The notes beneath the pieces are model-generated. The model was not told where the DNA came from and did not search any database. It was given only the letters and a program-made list of their open reading frames with translations. DNA of 64,000 bases. It comes from a bacterium (GTDB lineage: Bacteria > JAAXHH01). Shown here piece after piece: positions 299-29,419 of this stretch (position 1 is its first letter; each line of letters opens with the position of its first letter). The stretch lies in contig OZ220749.1 in the NCBI GenBank assembly GCA_965117045.1, positions 2,309,817 to 2,373,816 on the forward strand, written 5' to 3'. Position numbers and translations under genes: made by a program.

Positions 299-450
299 AG
301 TCCTTCCTTTGATAATGGATCGTATATCAATCAGCGTCTGAATGTGGTAACATCAAGATGCGCGAACGGTTGTTCCTCTCCACATAGCGCATCGGCTCAG
401 TGGCCGGCTGTTCCGCCATATACAGCGTCTCACCTCGGTTTAGCCGCTAC

Positions 451-3161: not shown

Positions 3162-3286
3162 CGGACCGCTGCCGCTAATTGGTACGAAAGTCCGACTGAG
3201 TGCCGAGTGACGGCCGGCTAAGTCACCTGGGCCGACAGCGAGCCTGACGGCCGGGTATACATCTGCCCGAATCCAGCGTTGTTACC

Positions 3287-4312: not shown

Positions 4313-4315
4313 AAC

Positions 4316-5218: not shown

Positions 5219-5290
5219 CCAGAATCACGATCGTCCTGCACCTCGTTGAATCCTTGCGCGGATTGAATCTCAGCATCCAGGAGCGCTTCT

Positions 5291-9240: not shown

Positions 9241-9455
9241 TGTGCGCGGGCCCGGAAGCCAGCCACGGGCGCAAGCGCCGTCAAGGACTTGCCGAACTGA
9301 ATATCACGATAAGGAAAACCGCGGAAATATCAAGGGTTAATACCTCGCCGGCATACTCGGAAAGGCTGCCCGATAATAACACTTTGCAATTCATTTCGTC
9401 CTCGTTACAATGCACTTGAATTTAACACTAAAACCCTCAATACAAGGACCACACA

Positions 9456-10388
9456 ATGATCGTCATGGCTACGAACAACGGCGACGTGGGCATCCGGCAG
9501 GCGGTGGCCGCGCTGAAGGAAGGCAAGACCGCGGTGGACGCCATCGAGATCGGCATCCGGGAGGTGGAGGTGCACCGGCCCGACCGCAGCGTCGGCCTGC
9601 ACGGCTATCCCAACATCCTCGGCTATCCCCAGCTGGACGCCCTCATCATGGACGGCCGTACCCGGAACGTGGGGGCCGTGGGCGCGGTGACGGGCTACGA
9701 TCATCCGATCTCGATCGCCCGCTGCGTCATGGAGAAGCTGATCCACGTCTTCCTCGTCGCCGACGGCGCGGAGCGGTTCGCCAGTGAAATGGGTTTCGAG
9801 AAGAGCACCTACGTGGACCCCGAGATGCCCGAGATCTACGCGAAGCACGTGCGCGAACAACTCGGGATCGACGACCCCGAGGAACTTCAGCACTCCAGGG
9901 AACTGTGGAAGCTGAGCCACCTGGCCGTCGATCCGCAGAAGGCAGGGGGCACGACCAACTTCATCGCGCAGGACGGCAACGGCGACATCTGCGTGGGCGT
10001 CAGCACGAGCGGATGGGGGTGGAAGTACCCGGGACGCCTGGGGGATTCGCCGGTCATCAGCGCGGGTGGTTTCGCCGACAACCGCTACGGCGCCGCGGCG
10101 TGTACGGGCACGGGCGAGCTGGCCATCCGGACCGGCGCGGCCCGGAACGTGGTGACCTACATGAAGATGGGCATGTCGCTCGAAGAGGCGACGGCCGAGG
10201 GGCTGCGGGACATGAACGAACTGGACGCCCAGCGCGTGGGCGGCGTGCAGATCATCTCCCTGGACGCCAGCGGCGCCCACATGGCGGGGACCACGAGCGA
10301 ACGGAAAGGCAGCCACGTCTACATGACGGCCGACATGGACGAGCCCGAGTTCGTCGATGGCATTTCCGTGCCGTACGGAGGTTCATAA
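9456..10388 (+). CDS. Isoaspartyl peptidase / L-asparaginase (Ntn-hydrolase, asparaginase-2 family)
   Basis: GAVGAVTGYDHPISIARCVMEK, the autoproteolysis region near GVSTSGWGWKYPGRLGDSPV, and the TGTGE motif. Confidence 0.8.
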   Translation: MIVMATNNGDVGIRQAVAALKEGKTAVDAIEIGIREVEVHRPDRSVGLHGYPNILGYPQLDALIMDGRTRNVGAVGAVTGYDHPISIARCVMEKLIHVFLVADGAERFASEMGFEKSTYVDPEMPEIYAKHVREQLGIDDPEELQHSRELWKLSHLAVDPQKAGGTTNFIAQDGNGDICVGVSTSGWGWKYPGRLGDSPVISAGGFADNRYGAAACTGTGELAIRTGAARNVVTYMKMGMSLEEATAEGLRDMNELDAQRVGGVQIISLDASGAHMAGTTSERKGSHVYMTADMDEPEFVDGISVPYGGS

Positions 10389-10421: not shown

Positions 10422-11153
10422 ATGAAGCTGGAAGACGCTAAGGCCCATCTCGACGAACACGGTTACGTCGTACTCAAAGAGGCGTTGAATCCGGAGCAGG
10501 CCAATGCCCTGCGTGACCGCTCGGCCGAGTTGGCCGCGGCGGAAAAGGCCGATGGGGAACACGTCTACTTCGATGGACAGGCGCAGCGGGTGTGGAACCT
10601 GGTCAACAAGGGCCGCATCTACGAGGAGATGATCCAACTGCCGCAAGTGCTCGCGCTCCACGAACACCTACTGGGCGACGACTGTATCTTAAGCAGCTTT
10701 ACCGTCAATCTCATCGGCCCGGGCGCACCGGCCGGCGGCCTGCACGTCGACTTCCCGCTGGGACGATTCCCTCAGCCTGCGCCGCCGTTCGCCTTCTGCT
10801 CCAACACGATTTTCGTACTCGACGACTTCACGCCCGAGAACGGGGCCACGCGGATCGTGCCGGGCAGCTACAAGCGCGGCACCCCGCCCGATCCGGAGAA
10901 GGAATACGACGACGTCATCCAACTGGATGCCCGCAAAGGCGATATCGTCATCATCCATGGCGCGACCTGGCACAGCAGCGGCGCCAATCGCACCAGTGAG
11001 GAACGAATGATCCTGCTGGGGTTCTTCTGCCGCTCGTTCATGAAACCGCAGCAGGACCAGTTCAGGCTGGCGGACCCCGAGGTCGTCAAGCGGGCGACGC
11101 CGACCCTGAAGCGCCTGCTGGGATTCGAATCGCAATCGGGCTTGCGGGCCTGA
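10422..11153 (+). CDS. Phytanoyl-CoA dioxygenase (PhyH) family protein
   Basis: LHVDFP...HGATWHSSGANRT, the HxD...H triad typical of PhyH. Confidence 0.6.
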   Translation: MKLEDAKAHLDEHGYVVLKEALNPEQANALRDRSAELAAAEKADGEHVYFDGQAQRVWNLVNKGRIYEEMIQLPQVLALHEHLLGDDCILSSFTVNLIGPGAPAGGLHVDFPLGRFPQPAPPFAFCSNTIFVLDDFTPENGATRIVPGSYKRGTPPDPEKEYDDVIQLDARKGDIVIIHGATWHSSGANRTSEERMILLGFFCRSFMKPQQDQFRLADPEVVKRATPTLKRLLGFESQSGLRA

Positions 11154-11156
11154 ACC

Positions 11157-11234
11157 GGCGGACCTGGACCGGCAGTATGCCAGCAGGCCTGGGGCGGCGG
11201 ACCTGGACCGGCGGTATGCCAGAAGGCCTGGGCC
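11157..11234. repeat. 2 x 39-bp direct tandem repeat immediately after the PhyH stop codon
   Basis: ggcggacctggaccggc(a/g)gtatgccag(c/a)aggcctggg(g/c)c appears twice, read directly from the sequence. Confidence 0.7.
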
Positions 11235-11353
11235 GGCAAATTGCCCGCTGATTTTCGCCCACGGGTCCGATCCTGTGGTCTCGAGCCCGTAGTACGCCCG
11301 TCGTCCAGTTCGCAACTCGATCATCCCCTTCATCCTCAAAAGAAAGATCACAC

Positions 11354-12112
11354 ATGCCTGACGCTCCATCTCAGAATATCGTCCCCAAGACCTATACCTG
11401 TTACCGTGCCTGCGGTCCCATCTCGATCGACGGAAAGTTGAGCGACCCGTCCTGGATCCGGGCGCCCCGCACCGACCTCTTCGTCGATATCGAAGGGGAC
11501 CTCAAGCCCATTCCCCGGTTCGGCACGCGCGCCATGATGCTGTGGGACGACGAGTACTTCTACGTGGCGGCCGACATGGAGGAACCGGACGTCTGGGGCA
11601 CCCTGACCAAGCGGGATTCCATCATCTGCAACGACAACGACTTCGAGGTGTTCATCGATCCCGACGGGGACACCAACCACTACATGGAGTTCGAGATCAA
11701 CCCCCTGAACGCCGTGTGGGACCTGTACCTGCCCAAACCCTACAGCAAGGGCGGGAAAGCCGACCACGACTGGGACTTCGAGGGCGTGCGCCACGCCGTC
11801 CACATCGACGGCACGGTCAACTGTTCCCACGACGTGGACCGCGGCTGGTCCACCGAAATCGCCTTCCCCTGGACCAGCATGGCCGAGTACGCCGGGGTGG
11901 ACTGCCCTCCGAAGCCCGGGGATTCCTGGCGGGTCAACTTCTCGCGGGTCGAGTGGGAATACGAACGCTACAAGGACGGCTATCTACGGAAAGAAGGCGT
12001 GCCCTGCGACAACTGGGTCTGGTCGCCCCAGGGTGAGATCAACATGCACATCCCCGAGATGTGGGGACACGTGGTGTTCTCGGATACGGTGGTGGGCACG
12101 GCGGAGATGTGA
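11354..12112 (+). CDS. Carbohydrate-binding family 9-like (CBM9/DOMON-like) domain protein
   Basis: WDDEYFYVAADMEEPDVW and NDFEVFIDPDGDTNHYMEFEINPLN resemble CBM9-like modules, judged from memory. Confidence 0.4.
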   Translation: MPDAPSQNIVPKTYTCYRACGPISIDGKLSDPSWIRAPRTDLFVDIEGDLKPIPRFGTRAMMLWDDEYFYVAADMEEPDVWGTLTKRDSIICNDNDFEVFIDPDGDTNHYMEFEINPLNAVWDLYLPKPYSKGGKADHDWDFEGVRHAVHIDGTVNCSHDVDRGWSTEIAFPWTSMAEYAGVDCPPKPGDSWRVNFSRVEWEYERYKDGYLRKEGVPCDNWVWSPQGEINMHIPEMWGHVVFSDTVVGTAEM

Positions 12113-12133
12113 TCGTGTTCCGCCCGTTGGGTT

Positions 12134-13093
12134 TCATTGTCCTGGCGGCCTGCCTGCGACCTGAGATTGAGACGGATTGTCTGGATAAGAGTAGGAACAC
12201 TCGTCCGAATTCGGCATGCATAGGGCTTTAATCGTATTCGAACTGGCATACCTGCCCCGTATACCGTCGATCGACATTTCCATCACCAGCCTGAACGCTC
12301 CCGATCTATTGGGGGTGTAGCTACATATTTCGCCGGTTTTGTGCGTTCCATCCACTTCGGCCCAGGGACTGGACGCGTTTTCTCTCCATTGCCAGTGTGA
12401 TTCGTGCACGAAGTACCGGATGCCGTTTACGGTGGCATCGAGCGGAATGCACGGGATGAAGCCTAGGGAAAAGCCGTGAATCTCTATTTTGCCGGCCGAT
12501 ACGCGAATCCATTCAAGTGGGGTATAGGGTCCGGTTAACGGTGGGTCCGGTGGGTCCGGCGGTTCAGGGGGTTCCGGTGGCTGGGGCGGCTCCGGCGGAT
12601 CTGGCGGCTCCGGCGGATCTGGTGGTTCAGGGGGCTCCGGTGGCGGGGGTGGCTCAGGTGGTTCCGATGTTTCAGGTGGTTCAGGTGGTTGATCTTCTTC
12701 CACATGAACACGGACGGGCTGAGTGGCGCTTAACCCATGGGAATCTGTCGCCGTAACCGTCACGGTCGCACTTCCCGGTGACATGGGTCTGATCGTCAAG
12801 ATAGCTCCAGATGTCCCGGCAGTCGCTATCGCGTCGTTGCTCGAAGCCGCGGTGTATCGCAGCAGATCTCCATCTACGTCCCTGAAGTATCGTGACACGT
12901 CCAACTCGACCGGGGTTCTCCCTGTGGTCAGGTTCTGGTTGGGGATCGCGCCCACGGCCTCGGGAGCGTGGTTCTCAGGCAGAGCCGGTTCATCCGGCTT
13001 CGGCCCGGCGGGATTGCTCTTCCCGCATCCCGAACTATAAACCAGTGAGCAGGCGATGACGATATGCAGGAAACTTAAGAACGTCCTGGGCAT
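12134..13093 (-). CDS. Lipoprotein with Ig-like domain and Pro-rich (PEPPEPP) linker
   Basis: Probable start is the ATG at 13093 (MPRTFLSFLHIVIACSLVYSSGC), giving a signal peptide plus lipobox Cys; the track ORF extends to 13231. A PEPPEPPDPPEPP repeat is encoded at about 12517-12700. Confidence 0.5.
   Translation of the reverse strand: MPRTFLSFLHIVIACSLVYSSGCGKSNPAGPKPDEPALPENHAPEAVGAIPNQNLTTGRTPVELDVSRYFRDVDGDLLRYTAASSNDAIATAGTSGAILTIRPMSPGSATVTVTATDSHGLSATQPVRVHVEEDQPPEPPETSEPPEPPPPPEPPEPPDPPEPPDPPEPPQPPEPPEPPDPPDPPLTGPYTPLEWIRVSAGKIEIHGFSLGFIPCIPLDATVNGIRYFVHESHWQWRENASSPWAEVDGTHKTGEICSYTPNRSGAFRLVMEMSIDGIRGRYASSNTIKALCMPNSDECSYSYPDNPSQSQVAGRPPGQ
12517..12700. repeat. Coding tandem repeat (ggtggntccggngg units) encoding the (PEPP)n linker of the lipoprotein
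   Basis: Read directly from the sequence; imperfect 12-15-nt units repeated about 12 times. Confidence 0.7.
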
Positions 13094-13328
13094 TTCCTCG
13101 ATCCCACGAATGAACGGTCCCGATGAACTCGTATCTGTAATATAGTTGAAAAAACACGACCAGCGGTATCTTTGGCGTTTCATTATAGGACGAATGCCCG
13201 CCAGGGAAGTTTCACTTATACAAGCTTCCACTTCCAGACGTCAGTGGTTGTTCGATCCCTTCCGGTAACTGACCGCTGAATGGCAGACCGGCGGGTTTCC
13301 GGTTCAAGCCCCGGCAGGAGCAAATGCA

Positions 13329-13781
13329 ATGATCGCTTATCGCCACACCCAGTTCGGCACGGTCAACGTCATCATCACTATCGCCATCCTGCCATTGGTC
13401 TTTATTCCCGCGTGGATGGCAGGAGCGGCGCCCTTCGCCTGGCTGATCCTGCTTTTCATGCTGGGGATCCTGGCGCTGTTCCACAACCTGACCGTCACCA
13501 TCGATGACCAGGACCTCCGCATCAGTTTCGGCATCGGCCTGATCCGGAAGCGGTTCCCCCTGGACCAGATCGAGTTCTGCCAGCCGGTCAGAAACTCCTG
13601 GCTTTACGGGTGGGGTATCCGGCTTACGCCGCGGGGCTGGCTATACAACGTATCGGGACTAGAGGCGGTGGAACTGAAGATGAAGAACGGCAAGACCTGT
13701 CGTATCGGAACGGACGAGCCCGGGGTCCTGGCCGCCGCGGTCCGGGAGGCGGTGGACAGGTCGAGTGAAGCGATGGGGTGA
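13329..13781 (+). CDS. Hypothetical membrane protein (two N-terminal TM helices)
   Basis: Hydrophobic stretches VNVIITIAILPLVFIPAWMA and FAWLILLFMLGILALF. Confidence 0.4.
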   Translation: MIAYRHTQFGTVNVIITIAILPLVFIPAWMAGAAPFAWLILLFMLGILALFHNLTVTIDDQDLRISFGIGLIRKRFPLDQIEFCQPVRNSWLYGWGIRLTPRGWLYNVSGLEAVELKMKNGKTCRIGTDEPGVLAAAVREAVDRSSEAMG

Positions 13782-13853
13782 GATGCTGAACGGGCGACCG
13801 TTGATCTCAAGAAGATCCAGACTACGCCGCCCGTGCGTAACCAGCACGGCCCG

Positions 13854-14093
13854 TCATGCGGAAGGAAGCGGATTTTTCCATGCGTACCAGACTTTATCCT
13901 GATATCCGTTCTTCAGTCTGATCTCGACTTCAATACCGAGAACCTCGATCTCTTCATCGGTTAACAGGTCCAGTATTTTGCTTTTCAGTATTTCGGCCTT
14001 TCGAGGGTCAATAAGCCGGCCTTGTTCATCAACCATAAGTAGACTCCTTTCAGCCCCGCCATAGTTGGAATATGATGGACATTCACGCCGCAA
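13854..14093 (-). CDS. Small hypothetical protein (60-79 aa) at island edge
   Basis: ORF with lower GC than its flanks; no recognisable motif. Start is uncertain (an internal Met gives MVDEQG...). Confidence 0.2.
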   Translation of the reverse strand: MRRECPSYSNYGGAERSLLMVDEQGRLIDPRKAEILKSKILDLLTDEEIEVLGIEVEIRLKNGYQDKVWYAWKNPLPSA

Positions 14094-14452
14094 GATCGAC
14101 GGCGCGATACTGCGGAAACTTGCATCTTCTATAGAAAAGAGTCGTTGAGAAACCAGGTTATCTCGTGTTTTATCTTTCGGCAGCCGGATAACCTGGGAAT
14201 CTATTGAACTGGTCCATCGGCTTCATCATTCGGCTCCACAGGTTCTGGCTTGATCCATTCATATCCAGCGAGGGGATTGTGCTAGCGGCGTAAATCGAGC
14301 TTTCTACTTGATTCTTCTTGTCGGTCCTTGCCGCAAAATTTCTTTACGTTTTGCATTTAATCTTTACTTTATGTGTTTTTCTTGGTATCTATTCTAAAGT
14401 AAAGTGAGTGATCTGAATTTCTGCCAATCGATCTACATCATCGGAGCGTATC

Positions 14453-14689
14453 GTGCCCAAAGTCAGTTCCAAGCGACAGATCACGCTTCCGGCCGATCAG
14501 TGCCGATTGGTCGGCATCGAGCCAGGCGACGAGTGCCAAAGCTACGTTGCCGACGGCCGCATTACCATTGTCCGCCAAGAGCCCGGCAGCGCCTGGGGAT
14601 GCCTGTCGCGTCTCGAAGCCGATCCGACGGTTTCAGACGAAGAGTCGCGCCAGGACGCGATTGAAGGGAAGCGGGACCAATTACCGTGA
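14453..14689 (+). CDS. AbrB/MazE/SpoVT-family antitoxin (VapB-like)
   Basis: N-terminal KRQITLPADQCRLVGIEPGDE swapped-hairpin motif. 4-nt GTGA overlap with the downstream PIN gene. Confidence 0.6.
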   Translation: MPKVSSKRQITLPADQCRLVGIEPGDECQSYVADGRITIVRQEPGSAWGCLSRLEADPTVSDEESRQDAIEGKRDQLP

Positions 14690-15087
14690 ACGCAATCGAC
14701 ACCAATGTCCTGCTGCGCTATCTCCTGAGAGACGACGAGGCGCAGGCTGAACGGGTGCGTCGCGTGTTTGAAGGCGGCGAGCGCGTGCTCATTACGGACG
14801 TGGTATTGGCGGAGACGGTGTGGACGTTAGCCGGCCGCCGCTATTGCGCGACCCGTACCGACCTGGTCGATCTGGTCAATAACCTGCTGCAGGATGCCAG
14901 CGTGCGCTTTGAGGATGACGAGGTCGTCTGGAGCGCTCTGCAGGCCTATCGGAGGACTGAAGGGGACTTCGCCGACGCCCTTATTGTGTGCAAAGCCGAA
15001 AAGCTGGCTGCCGAGGGCGACGAGTTGAGCACTGTTTATACCTTCGATGATGTCGCCTTGCAGTTGCCGGGTACTGCGAAGCCGTAG
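14686..15087 (+). CDS. vapC: PIN-domain toxin VapC
   Basis: AIDTNVLLRYLL places the N-terminal Asp in IDTN. It pairs with the upstream antitoxin, and its GTG start overlaps the TGA stop. Confidence 0.7.
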   Translation: MNAIDTNVLLRYLLRDDEAQAERVRRVFEGGERVLITDVVLAETVWTLAGRRYCATRTDLVDLVNNLLQDASVRFEDDEVVWSALQAYRRTEGDFADALIVCKAEKLAAEGDELSTVYTFDDVALQLPGTAKP

Positions 15088-15313
15088 TGTGGGGAGACGT
15101 AACGGTGCCAGGGAAGCATGCCGGTATCACTGTGGGCAGAGGGTTGATTATGTTTATGAGTTGAATGTGGCGTTGGTGGCGTTTGATTCGGACCGATTGT
15201 GTGATTCCCATGGATTTAACGTAATCCGCACCTGTGGCATTTACTTGCACGTAGTGAGCGTATGAACGTTATTTGGTTGGAGACGAACGCCAAACTTTGC
15301 CGAAGGGGCATTC

Positions 15314-15562
15314 ATGAGCAAGGGACTTGTCAGAACAGTGATCAACCTGGAAGACAAGCAGAAGGCATGGCTGGACCAGCAGGCCGCACTGCGACGTGTC
15401 TCCAGGGCCTCGTTGATTCGCCAGGCAGTCAGCGAATATCAGGCTAAGGAAAGGCGGGGCTCGGATGTTTCATTGCAAGAGGCACTCGAACAGACGGCGG
15501 GCATCTGGCAGTCAGGCGACGGCCTCGAGTACCAGGTGCGTATCCGCAAGGAATGGCTTTGA
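15314..15562 (+). CDS. Ribbon-helix-helix (CopG-like) antitoxin
   Basis: RRVSRASLIRQAVSEY is typical RHH. It lies 4 nt upstream of a PIN gene. Confidence 0.6.
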   Translation: MSKGLVRTVINLEDKQKAWLDQQAALRRVSRASLIRQAVSEYQAKERRGSDVSLQEALEQTAGIWQSGDGLEYQVRIRKEWL

Positions 15563-15565
15563 GTC

Positions 15566-15943
15566 ATGGCGAGATACCTGCTGGACTCGGTTATCGTCAT
15601 CGACCACTTCAACGGCGTTGATGCAGCGACGGAGTTCCTGACCGATCACGGTCGAGATTGCGTGATTTCCGTCATTACCCGCGCGGAGACTTTGGCTGGA
15701 TTCCCACCCGAATCTGAACCGTTGGCCCGTGAGCTTCTGGATCAGTTTGCGGCACTACCCGTTACCACCGAAGTCGCCGATGCCGCCGCAAGGTTGAGAC
15801 ACAACCACGGCATGAAACTACCGGATGCAATACAAGCGGCCATAGCAATGCAGGAAGGACTGTCCCTGGTCACTCGAAACACCAGAGACTTCAAGGCTGA
15901 CGGTCCGGTCGATGTGAAGATCCCCTATCGATTACCCCGATAA
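15566..15943 (+). CDS. vapC: PIN-domain toxin VapC
   Basis: LLDSVIVIDHF carries the N-terminal acidic residue. The ORF is about 125 aa and adjacent to an RHH antitoxin. Confidence 0.7.
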   Translation: MARYLLDSVIVIDHFNGVDAATEFLTDHGRDCVISVITRAETLAGFPPESEPLARELLDQFAALPVTTEVADAAARLRHNHGMKLPDAIQAAIAMQEGLSLVTRNTRDFKADGPVDVKIPYRLPR

Positions 15944-16232
15944 ACCCGCAAGGCAGATTGATTTCTCGAGGACGCCTACGCCATCGTCTCCGATGTATGG
16001 GTTCTACGAATGTTCGATGATGTAGAAACCTTTGACTTTTGCTTGGCGAGGCTACCAATCGCGAAATTGCCTTTGAAGTCGCTTACACTTCACCTACATA
16101 ACTATGAAAACCGCAAGTAATGGATTTTGTAGTTTCGTTTGGCCGTGAAACAGTCATGAGCTTGCCTGCAATTGCGGATCACATTCATAGTTCCCTATGG
16201 CGGTATTCTGCTAATTGCATTTGGACTAGGTA

Positions 16233-17309
16233 ATGATGAAAAACAACGTGTCACCATACAGAAAACCCCATGTAATCGTACCAAAAAACGAGGGCAAGGC
16301 TTGTGACGCCGTAATCAAGACAATGGAAAGACGTACCAGAGCGAAACGATCTGATATCCGTTTACCAGAGAGGGATAGAGTTGGAGTTCCAGTGGAACTA
16401 CGTCTAAAGTTGGGCGAACAGGAATACGCGATCGAACACACCATAATCGAACCATTCGAGAACAATATCCAAACCGAGCTAACAGTAGATGAGATTAGAA
16501 GGTACTTGGTTAGATCTCTCGAAGGTCGGTTGCTAAGTCCCATGTACTACGTGCTTCAAGTGCCAAAGGATGTTTGTTTACCGAAAAGGAAAAATAATCG
16601 AGTTAGGGCATTGAAGTTCCTTGCCGAATGGGTCCTAAGCAGTGCGGAGGTTATGTACGAAAGGATCACTGGATATTCATTGCCCATCGACTGCTATAAC
16701 ATCCCGTTCAGCCCTTACTGTTTTCCCGAAGATAGCGTCAAAGACGAACACTCGTGTTTAAACTGCACTGTCGAATTGCTGAGATGGCGGAACGGGACTG
16801 TGATAGGAAGAAAACCTGGCTTTGTTCAAACGGTACTTGACTATCCCAAAGACTTGGAGGGTTTTCGAACAGAACGGATACGTCGAGCTTTCTCAGACAA
16901 GTTTCCAAAGTTGGCGAAGTGTGGTGCTGAAGGAGCGCGAACAGTCTTGATACTGGAAAGCCGGGACGTAGCTCACACGAGATTCGATCTCATCGGGGCT
17001 CAGCTGCCAACCTTGCTGTCTGAGCACGCTTGCGTTCCTGACGAGATATTCTTGGTTGAACCATATGATTCACTCTGGTTTGTGTATCCGATGAAATACG
17101 ACAAGGGTCATTGGCCGGAAGAGGGGATGCCGCAGTGGGACAAAGGGCCGATTTATCATCCGGATAATCTGCCGACTGCTGGGATACCCAAAAGGTACCG
17201 TGATGCATTACAGTTGGACGAAATCTACGAGCCCTACCTGACTCGTGAGTGGATACCTGCCACCTACAAGCCGGAAGAATTGGAAGACCTTACGAATGCT
17301 AGTCTATAG
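16233..17309 (+). CDS. Hypothetical protein (358 aa), first gene of candidate two-gene defence module
   Basis: Low-GC ORF with no family recognised. Co-oriented with the 722-aa gene and 185 nt upstream of it. Confidence 0.5.
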   Translation: MMKNNVSPYRKPHVIVPKNEGKACDAVIKTMERRTRAKRSDIRLPERDRVGVPVELRLKLGEQEYAIEHTIIEPFENNIQTELTVDEIRRYLVRSLEGRLLSPMYYVLQVPKDVCLPKRKNNRVRALKFLAEWVLSSAEVMYERITGYSLPIDCYNIPFSPYCFPEDSVKDEHSCLNCTVELLRWRNGTVIGRKPGFVQTVLDYPKDLEGFRTERIRRAFSDKFPKLAKCGAEGARTVLILESRDVAHTRFDLIGAQLPTLLSEHACVPDEIFLVEPYDSLWFVYPMKYDKGHWPEEGMPQWDKGPIYHPDNLPTAGIPKRYRDALQLDEIYEPYLTREWIPATYKPEELEDLTNASL

Positions 17310-17494
17310 AGTCACTGTATGGTGAAGTTATCCCGATTTTGTAGATGGTATAGAGTTGGAATTCAGGACGACAATGAAGTAAGATCAGTACTGGATAATT
17401 ACAAGTTAATATCCTACAATGTGGAAGATGTATTGGAACAAAATGGTAGGTTCTTTTCGTTTGCCTTCGCAATAGTGTAAGTCAGGGAAATACA

Positions 17495-19663
17495 ATGAAT
17501 AATGAAAACGAACCAGAAGTTCGATCTGAACCTGAAATAGTTGCCGATTTAGAGAGTTTGAGCCAAGAACGGGGGTACATCTATTCCTTCTGTCGAATGG
17601 TTGATGAATACCTGTGGATGAAACCGAATGATCCCGAAATCCCTGATTGGCACAGCCAATTAAACCTACGTGAGCTGACTTTTTTATTGGGATTAATGGT
17701 CAAGTATCAATTGACTGTAACTGATCCTCCAACTAAATGGGAGTCTGACCTACATATCAACAAGACCAATGAGTTGTTTCATGAACTTCATCAAAATCAT
17801 GCATTTCCGAAAACTGAAGAAGTAAACGCCGCCCAAGTGAACTTAGAAGACTGGGAATCGGGGTTGAAAAACACCTATACCGATTGGATCAAAAGCGGTA
17901 AAGGTATCGTCGAGCCGGTTTTCTACGGGGAAGAAGGTGCATATGATTTTCAATTCCTAAAAATGGCTGCATGGAGATACAGATTTGATAATCAGTGGAT
18001 AAAGTCAAAAATAGGCATAGATGTTAATTCTATGACTGATATCGCAGGCAAAATAAAACAATTCACCGAACACCGGATCAATGATGTAACAAGGCCGTCA
18101 GACTTCAGGGAATCATGCCTTCGGTTATTGTCAGTCTTCTTAATCAAGCCGAATAATGTTCCTGGTGCTAACAGGGAGGAAATCGAAGTCTTTCTTGAAA
18201 CCTTTTCTGTTGAACCAGGGGATGGAGTTAATCAGAACCTTGACACGATTGGTAAATACAACACGGCGGACTCACACCCCATTATTAAGATCAGTAATGA
18301 CCTTTATTTCATTCCCATCTACTACAACCTAGCAAAATCCATCTACGAAAACCCTTTCTACTGGATTCTCAAAGACAACGATTACAAACAAACGGGGCTT
18401 AAGAACAGGGGTGATGTCACAGAGGAAATAGCATTCGAACTGTTACGAGGAGTATTTGGTATAGACAACGTTTTTCGAGGGGTAAAAGTACAACGTGGTA
18501 ACAGAGATATAACGGATATCGACGTTCTTGCAGTCTGTGGGAGTAAAGCTGTCATTGTTCAGGTTAAATCTAAGAAACTCACCGAGTTATCGAGGAGGGG
18601 TGACAGGAAGAGCATAGAGAAGGATTTCAAACATGCTGTTCAGGATGCTTACAACCAAGCGTTATTATCGAGAAACTACCTGCTCGAGACAGATGAAACT
18701 TTGACTGTTAATGAAGAAAGGGTTATTCAGGTCAAAGAGAACATCGATGATGCCTACATAATCTGTGCAACTGGTGATCATTATCCTGCAATTAACATTC
18801 AGACAAAGTCATACCTCAAAAAGAAGGCAACCGACCCTTACCCAGTCGTACAAAGTGTTTTTGACCTTGAAACTATATCGTTTTACCTCAGAGACCCTTA
18901 CGATTTCATTTACTACGCTCGTCAACGCACTATACATGCGAGTCACTTCGAGGCTGAATCAGAAATGGCCTTTCTTGGTTTTCATCTAAACCAAAAACTT
19001 TTTCCTACAGATGGATATGATGTCACTGTTATCTCAAGATACTACGCACATCTCATCGACCTTAGTTTTCCAGTTCTAAAAGGTGAGCATCCTTTTTCAG
19101 ATTCTGCATTCAAGGTTTTCCACAAGTGGAAAAACGACGATTTTGATGTACTAGTGAATGAAGTTAAAGTTAGGAGTATTGGTCATCCACAACTGACAGA
19201 TTTGATTTTCTTTTTGTTCGATCTAGCAGGATCTGTAGCTGACAAGATTTTCACAGTCTTCGGCGAAATAAAACGAACAACTCGTCATGACCTTCAGCCT
19301 CACGATGCTACTATTCCAATTAGTCATGTTAAGAAAGGTGTGACACTATTTAGTTACCCTTCCACACATGTACTTAGTGAGCCAATGATCCAAGAACAGT
19401 TTCGAGGCTTTGCAGTTGCTAGGAAATACAAATGCAAGGCTAGTGAATGGTTAGCGCTTGGATCATGTGCACAAAGTTCAAATCTGATTGACTGTCTCTG
19501 GTATAGTAAAGAAGAATGGTGTTATGATGAGAACTTAGAGCGTTTATCAAAAATTCTATTAAAACAAGGGCGGGCAATTCGTACTGACGGACGGAAAATA
19601 GGTAGGAACTCACCTTGCCCATGTGGCAGTGGATTGAAATTCAAAAAGTGCCACGGGAAATAG
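17495..19663 (+). CDS. NERD-like PD-(D/E/Q)xK nuclease-domain protein with C-terminal SEC-C zinc-binding motif (722 aa)
   Basis: Central DITDIDVLAVCGSKAVIVQVKSKK fits the NERD/PD-(D/E)xK pattern (D...D...QxK). The extreme C-terminus CPCGSGLKFKKCHGK is a canonical SEC-C motif. GGGAAA lies upstream of the ATG. Confidence 0.6.
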   Translation: MNNENEPEVRSEPEIVADLESLSQERGYIYSFCRMVDEYLWMKPNDPEIPDWHSQLNLRELTFLLGLMVKYQLTVTDPPTKWESDLHINKTNELFHELHQNHAFPKTEEVNAAQVNLEDWESGLKNTYTDWIKSGKGIVEPVFYGEEGAYDFQFLKMAAWRYRFDNQWIKSKIGIDVNSMTDIAGKIKQFTEHRINDVTRPSDFRESCLRLLSVFLIKPNNVPGANREEIEVFLETFSVEPGDGVNQNLDTIGKYNTADSHPIIKISNDLYFIPIYYNLAKSIYENPFYWILKDNDYKQTGLKNRGDVTEEIAFELLRGVFGIDNVFRGVKVQRGNRDITDIDVLAVCGSKAVIVQVKSKKLTELSRRGDRKSIEKDFKHAVQDAYNQALLSRNYLLETDETLTVNEERVIQVKENIDDAYIICATGDHYPAINIQTKSYLKKKATDPYPVVQSVFDLETISFYLRDPYDFIYYARQRTIHASHFEAESEMAFLGFHLNQKLFPTDGYDVTVISRYYAHLIDLSFPVLKGEHPFSDSAFKVFHKWKNDDFDVLVNEVKVRSIGHPQLTDLIFFLFDLAGSVADKIFTVFGEIKRTTRHDLQPHDATIPISHVKKGVTLFSYPSTHVLSEPMIQEQFRGFAVARKYKCKASEWLALGSCAQSSNLIDCLWYSKEEWCYDENLERLSKILLKQGRAIRTDGRKIGRNSPCPCGSGLKFKKCHGK

Positions 19664-19782
19664 CATCTGATCCCAAAATTCGTTTTGCGGATCCGCCACC
19701 TTCCGATGTAACTCCCAACACTTTCCTCTGTCTGTCACTGGCTTATACCTTCCTTACATTTCAAAAAACCTGCATCCTTTCA

Positions 19783-20520
19783 TCAGCTTGACGACAGAAT
19801 CACACTAGCCCTCGATAGAAGAGATGAAATGAAGTTGTTGAACGTAAGCTCCTCAGCTGGTTCGCTATAATCACCTTTCGTCCCAGTTATCCGATCCGAC
19901 AACAGAAAACATGCACCGTCATACAGTCGTTCACGTAAGAGCTTTGTTAACAGAATTTCATACCGCTCAGCGTAGGAGGCGTTTCTAAACTCGGGAAATA
20001 CTGAAAAGTGCGGTTGATGAACCTTAACGGGACTGGTCGATTTTACGGCATGTTCTAACAGCATCAGATAACCAAGCCAAGGACGTGTTGAAGGCTTGAA
20101 CGCTCCCTCTCGATATGCTGCCCAAAAATCAGTTGCATTGCCGATTGCTTCTTCTGTGCGATTGTTGAAGTTGTTTCCGAAAGATGGCCCCACCTGAGAT
20201 TTCAATTCCACCCCAGCTACAAGTATACCATCCGCGACTATTAGCAAGTCCCATTTTTTTTCAGCTCGATACCACCCGGGCAGTACCATCTTCTTCTGGT
20301 GATATATCATGGTATTCGAGATTCCAATTCTATTGAGAGCTTCCTTTATAACTTCAGCAAACCCATGTAATTGAGCTCCTCCGGTGACAGCGGCTCGTGC
20401 CCCAGTATCACGGACACCAGAGAAGGTACCCTGTGCCTGAGATTGGGAAGTTCGCGTATTCCAGAAATAACTGACAGCCCGTCGAATCTCGTCGTCAAAA
20501 TCTGCCGAATAGCTAGGCAT
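19783..20520 (-). CDS. Type II restriction endonuclease (PD-(D/E)xK), family unassigned
   Basis: DLLIVADGILVAGVELKSQ contains the PD...ExK core. The gene is 7 nt downstream of a DNA methyltransferase gene on the same strand. Confidence 0.5.
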   Translation of the reverse strand: MPSYSADFDDEIRRAVSYFWNTRTSQSQAQGTFSGVRDTGARAAVTGGAQLHGFAEVIKEALNRIGISNTMIYHQKKMVLPGWYRAEKKWDLLIVADGILVAGVELKSQVGPSFGNNFNNRTEEAIGNATDFWAAYREGAFKPSTRPWLGYLMLLEHAVKSTSPVKVHQPHFSVFPEFRNASYAERYEILLTKLLRERLYDGACFLLSDRITGTKGDYSEPAEELTFNNFISSLLSRASVILSSS

Positions 20521-20526
20521 TCAAGT

Positions 20527-21567
20527 TCACTCCAATATTCCATTTCGAATCAATGCTGAACCGAATAGGGATGAGGCCGACTGACAAAGGCGGTTGTACG
20601 CAAAGTCGAAGTAGTCAGAATCAATCTCAAAACCGATGCTATTTCTCCCCCATTTTGCAGCAGCAACTAACGTCGTACCCGTACCCATAAAAGGGTCCAA
20701 AACAGTATCGCCTACAAAACTAAACATCCGAATCAGTCGTTCAGAAACCTCAAGTGGGAACGGGGCTGGGTGGTTCCTTGTCGACGCGCCCGATATTCCC
20801 GTCCAAATCTGTTGAAACCACTTGTTATGATTTTCAACTGAAATCACACTTAGGACCCGGGCGCTAATACTTGGGGACCTGTAACCTCCTGGTTTTCGTT
20901 CCATAAGTACAAACTCAATATCGTTTTTTATGATTGCCCCAGGTTCATATGGTTTTCCGAGAAAACGAGACCCTCGTTCGACTTCGTAGGCGGCATTTGC
21001 TATTTTGTGCCAAATAATGGGAGCTAGATTGTCAAACCCTATATCGCGACAATGTTCTTGGATAGAGGAATGTAGAGGGATCACCGTGTGGCGCCCGTTG
21101 TTTTTACGACGAGAAACACATACATCACCAACAATACATACCAGTCGACCGCCAGGTACTAGCGCACGATAACATTGAGACCAGACCTTATCTAATTCCT
21201 TTAAAAACCTATTGTAACTGAGGAAATTACCAAGTTGGCCGTTGCGGACGGGATATTCCTTGAGATTCCAGTATGGTGGAGATGTTACAACGAGATGAAC
21301 ACTTTCCTTTTCAAGTGCAGACGCTAGACGGGCGTCACCCAGCCAAAGACTATGATTAGTAGGGATATTTTGTACAGCCTGCTCGATTTCTTTCGTATGC
21401 CGCGTGTTACTTGCGATACGTGGTATTTCTTTCTGAGGGTTTTTCAAATTACGTAGGGTACTTGGAACGTAAGGCGCAAGGTCTGCGGACAGAGTTGAAT
21501 TCTGTTCTTTTGAGGGATTTGGGGAGAAAGAAGTACACATTCTTAAGCTGGCCTTCGTCATAGTCAC
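20527..21567 (-). CDS. Beta-class N4-cytosine/N6-adenine DNA methyltransferase
   Basis: Motif IV VVTSPPYWN precedes motif I FMGTGTTLVAAAKWGRNSIGFEID. This circularly permuted order is the beta class, and SPPY suggests N4C. Confidence 0.85.
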   Translation of the reverse strand: MTMTKASLRMCTSFSPNPSKEQNSTLSADLAPYVPSTLRNLKNPQKEIPRIASNTRHTKEIEQAVQNIPTNHSLWLGDARLASALEKESVHLVVTSPPYWNLKEYPVRNGQLGNFLSYNRFLKELDKVWSQCYRALVPGGRLVCIVGDVCVSRRKNNGRHTVIPLHSSIQEHCRDIGFDNLAPIIWHKIANAAYEVERGSRFLGKPYEPGAIIKNDIEFVLMERKPGGYRSPSISARVLSVISVENHNKWFQQIWTGISGASTRNHPAPFPLEVSERLIRMFSFVGDTVLDPFMGTGTTLVAAAKWGRNSIGFEIDSDYFDFAYNRLCQSASSLFGSALIRNGILE

Positions 21568-21641
21568 TGATTTTTGCTATAGGATTTCAAGGCACTCACC
21601 ATACACAATTGAGATACGTTCAGTAGACTTCAGATACAAGT

Positions 21642-24600
21642 CTACTCATTTACAGAAAAGTCCATCGGACCTCTGTAGGTATAAGCAATTGAAGTTTCTC
21701 CACATACACGCGCTGTTAAAACGCCGTCAGGCTGACAACTTATTTTAGATTTTGACATACCGAGTGACTCAAAAGTGGGTGACAGAACCTCACATTGGCC
21801 ATTTCCCGCTATTCTCAGTCTTACGATATCGTCCAATCGAGGCGTAGTAGGTCCATGCCATATTACAGGGATTTCTCCAGAATGAACCGACCACAACAAC
21901 CTATCAGCAGGCACATGATGATTAACAAATTCCAACCAACGACTATGACTGTCGGTAGTCGGCCAGTTTTTGTCTTGGCTTAAAGTCAATACGTCAGGTG
22001 ATCTCAACCATTCTTGCAACTCGCGCGCATTGGTAAAATCAGCATCGGTGTCGGATACTGCCTTGATCGCGGCTAATCGGGACGTAAAGCCAGCCTGCAT
22101 CAATCGAGCTGCACATGGTTTAAGTGTACCTCTTTCCAAACAGGAACCTAAATCTCTTGTCTCTAACTCGTCTATATTATATGTGTCGTGCCCAACAGTT
22201 ATAGTATCCTCGTTGGCAACCGCACGAACTCGCACGGCATCAACAGCCCATGCTAGTTTGTAGACAACACCATTCTCGATGAATCGAAGTATATCATCAG
22301 TTTGGTTAACACTATAACAAGTGAGAGATTCTCCTAGTAGCCAAAGTCTTAATACATCACGCCAGTTGCTAAGATGAGGGTCAGGAACGAACGGTTCGAT
22401 CTCAAATAGCCGTTCTCCTAATTCTAGTATTGCGTCGACGGCTCGATCATTATCCTTATCAACAATAGCTGCATTCGCCACAATCAGTAATGGGTTAAGT
22501 TCTGTAGCAATTGCATCCATGTATTGACCGGATGCCAAACCTACTCCCGCCAGAAAGTAACCTCGTCGCTGTGCTTTACTGCTCTGCATCCAGATTGTAT
22601 TGGCGCGACCAACCAATGCAGCCTTCAAGAGTGTCTGATGACTTTCTTTTTTACGCGCTATCCGTTTTTGCCACAAAGAAGACGACAGTAACTGATCAAG
22701 GCGCATTGACAATTCTTCAACTGGGATATCTTCTTCACCAACTAGACTAAATATCGCGGTATCCAATACAGGTAGGTACTGATTCCACTGTGCGGCGTAT
22801 CGGTTTGTGGTTTTAGTACTCTCTCTTGGAACAACCGGAAAATCCCACGCCTCAGAGTTATTAAGTACGTAGTCGGTTAGTTCCTGTATATCTGGTTTTC
22901 CAAGAGCAACATGTAGTCGCTTCAAGAATATCATAAGAAGCTCAAATAACCCACTTTCGATATCGTGACCACCCTCTTTCGCTAGAAGCCCAGACCACTC
23001 TTGTCTGGATCGTGTGTGGTTTTTGAAAACTGGGTAAAGAATCAACCCTTCTACATCAACAAATGCTCTCCCTGCACGCCCGACTATGTTATGAAAGTCT
23101 GAAGCCTCAATTATCTTCCACCCACCATCCCTGAAATGGTGAATACTGTGCATTACAACTGCGGTCGCACTCAGGTTAAGTCCTTGTGCAAGAGTGGGGG
23201 AAGAAATCGTCACTTTAAGTGCGCCACTCCGTAGAAGGCGTTCCATTTCAATTCTAAAAGGTGTTGGTAACGCTCCATGGTGAATAGCGACACCGAGTTT
23301 TAGGCACCTAAGGATAGGATGATCACTACCAAGCCATTCCTGTCCAATACTCAAGACATCATCAAGTATGCACTCATCCACGTCAAGAGCGGATTCTATG
23401 AATCCCTTAGATTCAAGATCAATAATTGCATCTGCGTAGGGAGTAACGGAATTCCGTTGAGGACAGTAAATCAGAACCGACTGTTTATCTTCTAACAGAC
23501 GCCACGCTGTCGCGATGGCTAATTCTCTTTGGTCTCTTGGAAATGGTTCTGTCCGCCTTCCACGTAGTGGTTTTCTTTCCCTAAAGAACGTGGGCACGAA
23601 TGGTCGTTCTCCACCAACCCTTAGATCGAGGCGGGCCCGCCTGTCGCGCCAAATCACTTCACCGAAACGCTGCCGAGTAGGCCGCCAGTCGGACTTGAGC
23701 GCCACACCTTGATAACCTTTTCTTATCCAACTAGTAAAGTCATCGAGCTTGTTACCATCTGGTAGTATCGCTGACAGACAGATGATCCTTCGTTGAGTCG
23801 CGTCTTCCCTATTCAGTAGACGTTGAATCTGAATCTCATACCGAACCTCACGCTCACCGAGACCAATCATATGACCTTCGTCAAGTACAACAAGGCCCAC
23901 GTCATTGAGTATTGTAGGATCGTTTCGTAACGCAAAATCAAGTTTTTCAGGCGTTGCCACTACTATATCACGCTTAAGGAGAGTATCTTCTTCAAAGCCA
24001 CTCGTTCCCACACTCCCATATAGTCCGGAGACGGAGTATCCTAATGGGCCAAACGTGTTTTGAAGTGTGGACTCCGATTGTGCGGATAACGCGCGAAGCG
24101 GAGTTACAAAAACAACACGCTTACCGTCGCTCAGGCATCGAAGAATACATAGTTCTGCAATACGTGTTTTGCCGGCGCTTGTTGGGAGGGACACAACCAA
24201 GTTGTCTGAAGTATCAACAGCACGACGTGCTCCTTCGATCTGTGAAGGCCAAAGTTCGATTTCCGCTTTCGACCTACGACAGAGCAAAGCGATGAACATA
24301 CTGCGTGCCGCGAGCCATGAGGGGTTCTCACCATCAGGAAGGTCTTGGGGAAGCAGGTTATGAAAACTCGCCTGCCAAAGATCGTCAAATAGTTGGATAG
24401 CCAACCGAAAGCACCACCACTGCGGTACAAAATTCATTTCCGTAGCAACTCGCAATCCTGTCTGTAACTCTTCACGAGCCCTTGTCTCGAGTGCCTTCTC
24501 CCCTGTCTCAATAGCAAGAAGAAAGTAACATAGACCTGAATAAAACTGATCACAGAGCGCTAGATTCAGTGCGACAAGAACCGATTCCTCAAACTGATCG

Positions 24601-25163
24601 CTCGGTGCATCGGCACCAACAGTTGGTTCCTGAGAGGACAGGAACTCAACAAGTCTCTCATCCGAGGCTTCCCCTCTGGCTTTCCATTCGGTGATTTCGT
24701 CTTCAAGCTGATTAAAGTTCCTAAGAATAAGGAAAGATAAACCTCGTTCAATTTGCGACAGATTTGAACTGTGAATTGATTTTATCAGTAAAGAATACGC
24801 CCGGGCTGAAGAACGTCCAAGGTGGTAAGCAGCAGCGGCTAATATCCGTAGAAATCCACGTTGTGGATCGTCGGGGTCACCATTTGCCACGACCGCTTCG
24901 ATTGCCTCTCCAGACTGGATAAACGCACGGGACGCTAGCTGCTCATCACCGCCTTGTGTTCGGAGGTGAATGGCATGTAGCAAGAGTGCATCACCGTAAA
25001 CTATTAAATCATAAGACAGCATCTCCGTAAACGCTGGTGCGCCACGGGGTAGAACACCATCTCGCCAAATCAACGATCGTGCTTGGCCTCGTGCCAGAAG
25101 TTGTGCACGAAAGGCGGGCTCGAGCGCTGAAGCAACTACACTCTCTAGTTGTTCAAGATTCAT
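21642..25163 (-). CDS. Large SF2 DExH (DEGH) helicase, HamB-like, 1173 aa
   Basis: Walker A TSAGKTRIAE, motif II VVLDEGHMIG and motif VI HNIVGRAGRAF. About 300 aa of helical N-terminus and about 450 aa of C-terminal extension. The start overlaps the upstream 257-aa ORF by 11 nt. Confidence 0.85.
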   Translation of the reverse strand: MNLEQLESVVASALEPAFRAQLLARGQARSLIWRDGVLPRGAPAFTEMLSYDLIVYGDALLLHAIHLRTQGGDEQLASRAFIQSGEAIEAVVANGDPDDPQRGFLRILAAAAYHLGRSSARAYSLLIKSIHSSNLSQIERGLSFLILRNFNQLEDEITEWKARGEASDERLVEFLSSQEPTVGADAPSDQFEESVLVALNLALCDQFYSGLCYFLLAIETGEKALETRAREELQTGLRVATEMNFVPQWWCFRLAIQLFDDLWQASFHNLLPQDLPDGENPSWLAARSMFIALLCRRSKAEIELWPSQIEGARRAVDTSDNLVVSLPTSAGKTRIAELCILRCLSDGKRVVFVTPLRALSAQSESTLQNTFGPLGYSVSGLYGSVGTSGFEEDTLLKRDIVVATPEKLDFALRNDPTILNDVGLVVLDEGHMIGLGEREVRYEIQIQRLLNREDATQRRIICLSAILPDGNKLDDFTSWIRKGYQGVALKSDWRPTRQRFGEVIWRDRRARLDLRVGGERPFVPTFFRERKPLRGRRTEPFPRDQRELAIATAWRLLEDKQSVLIYCPQRNSVTPYADAIIDLESKGFIESALDVDECILDDVLSIGQEWLGSDHPILRCLKLGVAIHHGALPTPFRIEMERLLRSGALKVTISSPTLAQGLNLSATAVVMHSIHHFRDGGWKIIEASDFHNIVGRAGRAFVDVEGLILYPVFKNHTRSRQEWSGLLAKEGGHDIESGLFELLMIFLKRLHVALGKPDIQELTDYVLNNSEAWDFPVVPRESTKTTNRYAAQWNQYLPVLDTAIFSLVGEEDIPVEELSMRLDQLLSSSLWQKRIARKKESHQTLLKAALVGRANTIWMQSSKAQRRGYFLAGVGLASGQYMDAIATELNPLLIVANAAIVDKDNDRAVDAILELGERLFEIEPFVPDPHLSNWRDVLRLWLLGESLTCYSVNQTDDILRFIENGVVYKLAWAVDAVRVRAVANEDTITVGHDTYNIDELETRDLGSCLERGTLKPCAARLMQAGFTSRLAAIKAVSDTDADFTNARELQEWLRSPDVLTLSQDKNWPTTDSHSRWLEFVNHHVPADRLLWSVHSGEIPVIWHGPTTPRLDDIVRLRIAGNGQCEVLSPTFESLGMSKSKISCQPDGVLTARVCGETSIAYTYRGPMDFSVNE

Positions 25164-25926
25164 GCACGTTCATTGCTTTCTTAAAGACATTCTCGATAAA
25201 CTTTTGGTGTTTTAGTACCTGCAGTCCTACTGCTCTCTGCATAATTGGTCCGTTATACTTCTTAAGATCTGTGGTTAAAAAGGATTCAGGTTCATTTCCA
25301 GTAAAAGTAAATAACAAGTGCTCAACGTGACTGTGCCTTATGTCCTTAACTAATTGAGCAACTGTTATCGCATCAGAAAGGACGGTGTCACCGAGTTCCA
25401 ATAGACGTTCAGCAACAAAGCTAAGCGCGTGACCGGAGGGTAAACCGTTGTCGCGGTCTAAACATTGTCGCGCTTCTGTAATTGTGCGCTTGTTCAGAAA
25501 TTTACGGCTTTTAGCTTCAGTTTTTAAGAACCGAAGTGGAGTGCCGTCACGTGGGTCTTTGATTCCAATTACATCATCGCCTCGCATAGGCATCTCGCGT
25601 GAATCCTTCCATCGCAGACGCTTTATGGGGACGACATAGTCGGTCTTTTCGCCAATATATTCGGTTGCAAGTATCTCCCCCAGATCTCCGGACCGGATTG
25701 GTTTTGAGTGAGGGAGTTTTTGTTGTAACAGATTCGCTACACCTTCCTTATCAAGCAATTTGAATACCTGCTGAAGACGCTGCTCACTGACGTAATGCTG
25801 CGGAAGAACAGCAGCTGTGCATCGACACCCCGCCTCGACGGAATTTTCGTCTGCTCTGAGTAGTTGTAACGCATGAGTGTTGATGTTCTTGTTCTGTTCA
25901 TGCGTCCAATCAGATAGGAATAGCAC
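25153..25926 (-). CDS. Small putative PD-(D/E)xK protein, HamA (DUF1837)-like
   Basis: GDDVIGIKD...RFLKTEAK fits D-x(19)-E-A-K. It is translationally coupled to the helicase. Assignment to DUF1837 is from memory of Hachiman architecture, not from a search. Confidence 0.4.
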   Translation of the reverse strand: MLFLSDWTHEQNKNINTHALQLLRADENSVEAGCRCTAAVLPQHYVSEQRLQQVFKLLDKEGVANLLQQKLPHSKPIRSGDLGEILATEYIGEKTDYVVPIKRLRWKDSREMPMRGDDVIGIKDPRDGTPLRFLKTEAKSRKFLNKRTITEARQCLDRDNGLPSGHALSFVAERLLELGDTVLSDAITVAQLVKDIRHSHVEHLLFTFTGNEPESFLTTDLKKYNGPIMQRAVGLQVLKHQKFIENVFKKAMNVHES

Positions 25927-26069
25927 CTAGCAAAAAACCTTGTAGCGCATTATTTTTCGTTTAGAGTTGAACAAAACCCTTCGGAAACGGATACCGACTT
26001 GGTATTTTGGGTTTCCAAGTAACAAATAAGGAATCTTCATTTCGGGCGATTGTACTATAAGCAAATCTA

Positions 26070-26855: not shown

Positions 26856-26873
26856 CTTTCCTGGTTGATGCCG

Positions 26874-29087: not shown

Positions 29088-29419
29088 GTTCGGACCCCGG
29101 CAGTGGCTGGAACACGTATCGGTTTCCGTACGAATGCGAACCGGAATCTGTACGGGCGCGAATCAGATTCCGGGTGAATAAAGCAATCGCTGCATTGAAC
29201 TTATACGATTTCGGGTCGGATTACAATACATTTGTACCGGTGTCCTGCGGTAAGGGTTGCCCACGGACCCGTTCGCATGCATAATGGACCTGATTGCACG
29301 TGGTGATTCCGCCACCTGGCCCGGGGACCTGTCGAACCGGCCAACCACTGACCGAGACTACCGGACCGAGACCACCGGACGAGACCACCGGACGAAACGA
29401 ACCAGGGAGCCTCATTTCC

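Follow-up and report, generated by a model that had tools for sequence, protein, structure and literature searches.

The 64,000-nucleotide (nt) stretch of bacterial DNA analysed here (GenBank assembly GCA_965117045.1, contig OZ220749.1, positions 2,309,817 to 2,373,816 of the forward strand; hereafter the window) carries two neighbouring genes on the + strand, geneA (16233..17309) and geneB (17495..19663), for which a preliminary description had proposed a joint role as a two-gene defence module. Our results indicate that geneA and geneB are, with high confidence, independent cassettes and not a two-gene system. The explanation that we favour, with a probability of roughly 0.6, is that two unrelated, independently mobile single-gene cassettes have come to be neighbours in a defence-island hotspot on a Gemmatimonadota chromosome, and that geneB encodes a stand-alone immune nuclease. 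A defence role for geneB, taken by itself, has about even odds or slightly better.

The description had placed two same-strand open reading frames (ORFs) of 358 and 722 amino acids (aa) at exactly these positions, and both are present there; in the public record P0121 the start of geneA is set at the second Met, which gives 357 aa. Judging from their homologues (187 for geneA and at least 561 clusters for geneB, both at E<=1e-3) and from residues that are invariant across more than 110 sequences, both are real genes and not chance ORFs.

Co-occurrence and synteny of geneA and geneB

Since both proteins have many homologues, the association of the two genes could be tested in other genomes. We sampled 82 loci that carry a geneB homologue (26–84% identity), 80 of them metagenomic and two genomic, the latter being the yield of a single-sequence query against genome contigs. 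The flanks reached at least 1.3 kb upstream in 55 of the loci and at least 1.3 kb downstream in 61. All the ORFs of these loci were searched with a hidden Markov model (HMM) built from geneA homologues, and a geneA homologue was found in none of the 82. The same HMM gave 515 bits on the window itself, which indicates that the test works. When the ORFs lying within 4.5 kb of geneB were clustered, no conserved neighbour appeared, the biggest cluster being represented in four of the 82 loci.

The converse comparison covered 17 geneA loci, which amount to about 10 independent contexts. Only one of them, L083, also has geneB. Over 8.1 kb this locus matches the window at 89.7% identity, and it carries the same block of geneA, geneB, the XhoI-type enzyme, its methyltransferase and HamB. 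L083 is thus the same island, and it is not independent evidence for pairing. No conserved partner of geneA was found among these loci either; the top clusters were antisense ORFs within geneA, or came from near-identical contigs.

Synteny leads to the same result. L001 is a complete chromosome, a metagenome-assembled genome of an uncultured Gemmatimonadota bacterium, and contains the same hotspot as the window. Its flanks (L001 positions 1-6093 and 17156-21152) are syntenic with window positions 10796-15212 and 26071-30000 (blastn, 81–90% nucleotide identity), and the hotspot is limited by the first VapBC pair on one side and the exonuclease III gene on the other. The cargo of L001 consists of a type I HsdS, a Fic-like/HATPase_c_4 protein, HsdM, geneB and a metallo-beta-lactamase-fold protein. 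The only cargo that it has in common with the window is the geneB cassette (17447..19673, +; blastn 87.2% over 2227 bp), which reaches from 48 nt upstream of geneB to 10 nt downstream of it, so that the similarity starts at 17447, inside the 185-nt spacer between the two genes (17310..17494). The geneA cassette (16206..17323, +) is delimited in the same way by L084, which matches window positions 16206-17302, and by L170, which matches 16219-17323 (blastn 77.8%), nothing else being common. Both of these loci belong to another hotspot, which extends from purA to DLH/YqhI and holds cargo different from that of the window; geneA and an HSDR_N-like gene are kept in both. Given that geneB alone is shared with L001 and geneA alone with L084 and L170, each gene is a mobile unit of its own.

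The preliminary description had stated that its module would fall if the two genes did not co-occur elsewhere. Such conserved co-occurrence is absent, the syntenic L001 has geneB without geneA, and on these grounds, co-occurrence in both directions together with synteny, the two-gene module was rejected. In the spacer, a scan for promoters and terminators found nothing terminator-like and only a weak resemblance to a promoter, at 17392-17420; the counts did not exceed those of shuffled sequences and are uninformative.

Domain architecture and conservation of geneB

The preliminary description had recognised in the 722-aa protein a D-x-D...QVK block and a C-terminal SEC-C motif, and both were recovered. 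The block, ITDIDVLAVCGSKAVIVQVKSKK, occupies residues 339-361, and the SEC-C motif, CPCGSGLKFKKCHGK, is matched by Pfam at 37.2 bits against a cut-off of 20.4 (residues 704-722). The proposal that the block belongs to a NERD/PD-(D/E)xK nuclease core in which Gln replaces the second acidic residue agrees with a Pfam NERD match above the cut-off (22.9 against 22.1 bits, residues 306-396) and with the conservation given below. Among 30 diverse relatives, SEC-C was detected in all and NERD in 24, with a best NERD E-value of 3.2e-6.

Structure prediction, which the description had suggested for both proteins, gave for geneB an AlphaFold2 model of four parts (predicted local distance difference test score, pLDDT, 86.4; predicted template modelling score, pTM, 0.88). 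Residues 1-297 (17495..18385, +) are mostly helical and contain the motif VEPxFYGxxGAYDFQ, in which E140, Y144, G148 and Q153 are invariant; they have no sequence match in Pfam or the Protein Data Bank (PDB). The confidently predicted nuclease core of restriction-endonuclease fold follows at residues 298-430 (18386..18784, +), with an alpha-beta-beta-beta-alpha topology that places E310 on alpha1, D341 and D343 on beta2, and Q356-V-K358 on beta3. Residues 431-703 (18785..19603, +) form a conserved helical and alpha/beta region without a domain assignment, which includes FDFxYYxRQR and the invariant residues F456, D457, L458, Y473, Y474, Q477 and R478. The protein ends in the SEC-C zinc knuckle (C708, C710, C719 and H720; 19604..19660, +), which in a PDB sequence search aligns with the C-terminal metal-binding peptides of SecA and YchJ. 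This tail is the only part of geneB with a sequence link to solved structures, and its closest structural matches are DNA endonucleases.

The putative catalytic motif, D341-I-D343...K351...Q356-V-K358-S-K-K361 (18515..18577, +), is highly conserved. D343, K351, Q356, K358 and K360 are present in 115 of 115 aligned homologues, D341 in 112 and E310 in 111, and the QxKSK block is kept in a relative of only 26% identity (L002). In the SEC-C motif, the Cys positions are conserved in 113-114 of the 115 sequences, and position 720 is His in 93 and Cys in 20. The spacing E310-33-D343-13-Q356-x-K358 parallels that of the NERD tetrad E535/D567/E580/K582 of ZwsA. Because PD-QxK is a known rare catalytic variant, found in Mrr-cat and the MspJI family, the conserved site of geneB looks functional and not decayed.

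Two conserved motifs outside the core, at residues ~136-155 (17900-17960) and ~456-478 (18860-18930), could mark a ligand-binding or second catalytic site. In four loci (L023, L025, L036 and L062) the geneB homologue is split into two to four consecutive ORFs, which may be decaying pseudogenes or assembly frameshifts.

Distribution and genomic contexts of geneB

The geneB family ranges over Gemmatimonadota, Pseudomonadota, Nitrospirota, candidate phyla, Actinomycetota and haloarchaeal plasmids. RefSeq labels its members 'SEC-C (metal-binding) domain-containing protein', PADLOC v2 matches the SEC-C tail only, NCBIfam adds nothing further, and a literature search found no paper on a NERD plus SEC-C architecture. 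The family is thus widespread, unnamed and uncharacterised. The earlier impression that the pair corresponds to no named system was confirmed, since searches of PADLOC v2, Pfam, NCBIfam and PHROGs placed neither protein in a named system.

Among the first 55 geneB loci, the 139 nearest neighbours include strong PADLOC matches to components of type I, II and IIG restriction-modification (R-M) systems, to GajA (Gabija), DrmD (DISARM), AriA (PARIS), PtuA (Septu), BrxH (BREX), HerA and SngC, and to MADS proteins; integrases and ordinary metabolic genes are also found among them. A geneB homologue is present in 38 plasmid records, 22 of them conjugative, from hosts including Agrobacterium, Sphingomonas, Mycolicibacterium and the archaeon Halobaculum. 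In the Agrobacterium plasmid pAt (L181, NZ_CP042276.1 17735-37879), it is flanked by a 1142-aa AAA-domain protein and a PLD-like protein, with an integrase nearby. Viral contigs mostly match geneB in the SEC-C tail only. A full-length homologue of 27% identity does occupy a moron-like position in a P22-like prophage (L090 7998-10166, +), two ORFs upstream of the P22-type portal; the portal and the 534-aa ORF that precedes it, a probable large terminase without a Pfam match, lie at 11248-15140. In qualitative terms, geneB is distributed like an accessory gene that moves horizontally and prefers defence islands.

The other flank of the pAt homologue is an HxsABC radical-SAM cluster, and GenBank copies of this plasmid mislabel the geneB homologue as 'prepilin peptidase'.

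Superfamily, fold and contexts of geneA

The preliminary description found no recognisable family for the 358-aa protein. This stands at the level of sequence, as geneA has no match in Pfam, NCBIfam, PADLOC or PHROGs; it does not stand at the level of fold, which is predicted to be restriction-endonuclease-like, and the protein belongs to a large unnamed superfamily. A profile search of 1.84 billion cluster representatives yielded 1264 relatives (clustered at 50% identity), of which 784 were at E<=1e-10. Most of the 1264 are 285-300 aa long and lack the C-terminal ~60 residues of geneA. A Pfam scan of distant members returned nothing, and no solved relative was found by sequence. A match of geneA to TAL effectors was dismissed as the sum of sub-threshold repeat matches.

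Residues 20-111 of geneA (16290..16565, +) are modelled as an alpha-beta-beta-beta-alpha-beta core that contains E20, (D/E)55 and E68-H69-T70. Its acidic residues are at the canonical spots, E20 in helix 1, position 55 before strand 2 and E68 in strand 3, and this predicted core, with acidic residues at the helix, beta2 and beta3 positions, is shared with PaqCI, SfsA, CdiA-CT, NucC and HamA. In 113 aligned sequences E68, H69 and T70 are present without exception, position 55 is acidic in 112, and E20 is found in 103, with gaps in nine; E68, H69 and T70 are invariant throughout the superfamily. Four more invariant residues, K223, K226, E242 and D270, belong to the C-terminal half of geneA. The canonical D...(D/E)xK pattern was not found in geneA, in which beta3 has Thr where Lys is expected; catalysis is thus uncertain, given an E-H-T site without the canonical Lys, for which K223 or K226 might compensate.

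The neighbours of geneA vary from locus to locus, and comprise a ThsB-type TIR protein, AbiEii, HsdR with NOV_C, a type IIG enzyme with DUF4238, a NACHT protein, HNH, insertion sequence (IS) elements and a Mu-like element. No geneA homologue was found in viral contigs. GeneA is a separate accessory gene, built on a restriction-fold scaffold and probably related to defence.

Several details of these loci may be added. DUF4238 genes lie near geneA homologues in two unrelated loci, at 11848-12705 in L088 and at 5226-5978 and 7691-8458 in L176, where one of them ends 23 nt before geneA; such proximity is not family-wide. In L170 an IS3-family element has inserted into the HSDR_N-like gene and split it, and this locus has also gained an IS256-family transposase and an AbiEii/DUF6088 pair. 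The 2.3-kb stretch of L084 annotated as gene-free 3' of the geneA homologue was examined for a geneB remnant and holds none; in this low-GC island, 1.3 kb 3' of the geneA homologue, lies an uncalled ThsB-type TIR ORF (9447-9944, +; Pfam ThsB_TIR 95.6 bits).

Relation to known defence nucleases

PD-QxK is the catalytic signature of Mrr-cat and of the MspJI family, which act in modification-dependent restriction (PMC12707154, PMC11037411). GeneB resembles these enzymes in the D...QxK variant, in being a single polypeptide without a methyltransferase and in its presence in restriction hotspots; however, Pfam does not match it to Mrr_cat, and its much greater size, its unique flanking domains and its SEC-C tail set it apart. 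No Pfam match to Mrr_cat, SRA, wH, PUA or YTH was obtained in geneB or in its 30 relatives.

ZwsA (Zowangsin) is a stand-alone NERD defence effector composed of VHS, DUF647, NERD and S4 domains, in which substitutions of E535, D567, E580 and K582 impaired antiphage activity; it is an RNA endonuclease that cuts RNA-phage genomes (preprint). The putative E...D...(E/Q)xK tetrad of geneB has nearly the same spacing as that of NERD (PF08378) and ZwsA, and it too is predicted to lie on a restriction-endonuclease fold; both ZwsA and geneB are large multidomain proteins, acting or proposed to act alone, and both occur in defence islands. In place of the Glu of NERD and ZwsA, the geneB family has an invariant Gln, and the nuclease, which is C-terminal in ZwsA as described, is central in geneB, which also carries the SEC-C tail. 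VHS, DUF647 and S4 were detected neither in geneB nor in the 30 relatives, where only NERD and SEC-C were found.

Upx is a single-protein PD-(D/E)xK defence system of ~1250-1270 aa with N-terminal, middle and C-terminal domains and a C-terminal D...ExK site (PMC13099982); it stands alone and is activated by a phage protein. It is also the best full-length Foldseek match of the geneB model (PDB 9wuf; probability 1.00, E 4.3e-4, 604 columns), although with low template modelling scores (0.36/0.23). The two have in common large unannotated non-catalytic domains joined to a PD-(D/E)xK nuclease in one stand-alone polypeptide, and an occurrence in both bacteria and archaea. They differ in that Upx has a canonical C-terminal D...ExK and no SEC-C, whereas geneB has 722 aa, a central D...QxK and a SEC-C tail. 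Neither phmmer nor the family profile of geneB recovered 9wuf at E<=10. Homology between the geneB N-terminal region and that of Upx, considered because of a resemblance seen by eye in a preprint supplement, was rejected when hhalign compared the geneB family with a profile of eight Upx N-terminal sequences (probability 0.2%, E 0.3), and three RefSeq homologues of geneB were absent among the Upx entries listed. GeneB is thus not a member of the Upx family, and Upx is an analogue in design.

Rugutis, a lactococcal single-gene antiphage protein of 359 aa, joins a SEC-C motif to a fold that is novel in other respects, and no nuclease domain is reported for it. It resembles geneB in having SEC-C in a one-gene setting; compared by description only, its motif is N-terminal and that of geneB C-terminal.

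Discussion

According to the explanation that we favour, geneB would act alone as a sensor-nuclease immune protein. As it has neither a methyltransferase nor an antitoxin partner, it must discriminate self from non-self by itself. Its non-catalytic domains may hold the Mg2+-dependent PD-QxK nuclease inactive or untargeted until a feature of the invader is recognised. Like Upx, geneB could be triggered by a phage protein; like Mrr and MspJI, it could instead respond to modified DNA. Once triggered, the nuclease would cut nucleic acid, and the SEC-C tail could serve to bind a partner or nucleic acid in a metal-dependent manner. For geneA the proposal is weaker: it may have an accessory or defensive role of its own, exerted by binding or cleaving nucleic acid.

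Several observations weigh against this explanation. The defence role of geneB is read from genomic context only, the association is qualitative, and many neighbours of its homologues are housekeeping or metabolic genes; one plasmid copy lies amid efflux and TonB genes. The NERD score of the window protein is marginal (22.9 versus 22.1), and geneB has no recognisable modification-reader domain. Moreover, the window and L083 both keep geneA and geneB adjacent and on the same strand, and a local functional interaction is possible.

Among the other functions that may be considered, the one that deserves most attention, although we regard it as unlikely, is that geneB belongs to the type IV, modification-dependent restriction enzymes, with flanking regions that read modified DNA and a PD-QxK core that then cuts it. 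The invariant Gln of D...QxK, the single-gene organisation, with neither a methyltransferase nor any other conserved partner, and the frequent position beside R-M systems agree with this possibility, to which the differences between geneB and Mrr-cat or MspJI, set out above, are to be opposed. Somewhat more doubtful is the idea that geneA and geneB are non-immune cargo of mobile elements, serving maintenance or addiction, competition between elements, or DNA repair and recombination; they do occur on plasmids, beside IS elements and in a prophage, and some of their contexts contain no defence genes, but they recur in hotspots whose cargo is overwhelmingly defensive and show no link to replication, partition or transfer genes. 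It also appears improbable that geneB is an RNA-targeting or ribosome-associated nuclease whose SEC-C tail docks on the ribosome or on a SecB-like partner while its NERD core cleaves RNA. SecB and ribosomes are known contacts of SecA-type metal-binding domains, the tail of geneB is nearly identical to the metal-binding peptides of SecA and YchJ, and ZwsA offers the precedent of a stand-alone NERD effector that is an RNA endonuclease. However, ZwsA has VHS, DUF647 and S4 domains that are missing from geneB, the nearest structural matches of geneB are DNA endonucleases, and SEC-C tails are found on many unrelated proteins; RNA cleavage with ribosome docking is less likely than recognition of a phage protein or of modified DNA.

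An obligate two-gene defence system, in which geneA would, for instance, sense or regulate and geneB would be the effector nuclease, has very little probability left. The genes are adjacent and on the same strand, their 185-nt spacer lacks a terminator-like site, and the pair is kept in L083. Against this, geneA is missing from all 82 geneB loci sampled, geneB is found in just one of the 17 geneA loci, a near-duplicate (90% identity) of the entire 8-kb island, the similarity to the geneA-free L001 starts within the spacer, and the two families are unlike in size and distribution. Adjacency in one island is not evidence of a system, and the boundaries mapped here, 16206-17323 and 17447-19673, delimit two separate cloning units.

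Single-protein defence effectors of the PD-(D/E)xK or NERD type are already known, as Upx and ZwsA show, and candidates beside known systems are common in defence islands. What is distinctive in the present case is an invariant PD-QxK in a new multidomain scaffold, the SEC-C tail, and two large families without a full-length family model. Should geneB prove protective against phages or plasmids on its own, the defence catalogue would gain a single-gene system of broad distribution, and the SEC-C tail, which is common and functionally obscure, would acquire a role in immunity. A bolder version, to which we give little credence, is that geneB represents a new class of single-protein immune nucleases in which SEC-C couples the enzyme either to a hub such as SecB or the ribosome or to a signal based on metal or redox state, geneA being a second single-gene family with an E-H-T site; if true, the coupling of SEC-C to a cellular hub or signal would be a new mode of control for an immune nuclease. 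The geneA superfamily, with 1264 representatives, no Pfam model and a recurrent presence in defence hotspots, is in itself a sizeable annotation gap.

Surroundings of the two genes in the window

The preliminary description had located the genes between toxin-antitoxin modules and a restriction/helicase cluster, and this holds. The island extends over ~16000-26000, with a GC content of 41-48% as compared with ~62% in the genome; no tRNA was found at its borders. On one side are two VapBC pairs, the first (14453-15087, +) in the conserved flank of the hotspot, and the second (15314-15943, +) of the RHH/PIN type. On the other side, a XhoI-type restriction endonuclease (19783-20520, -; Pfam XhoI 256 bits) forms a type II R-M pair with an N6_N4 methyltransferase (20527-21567, -), followed by a complete Hachiman system (21642-25926, -) for which PADLOC gives HamB of 1173 aa (1563 bits, PDLC00174) and HamA of 257 aa (322 bits). 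The XhoI-type R-M pair and Hachiman are known systems and stand outside the candidate. Just beyond the island, in high-GC host DNA, a 365-aa ORF (12134-13231, -) contains a long proline-rich (PEPPxP)n tract.

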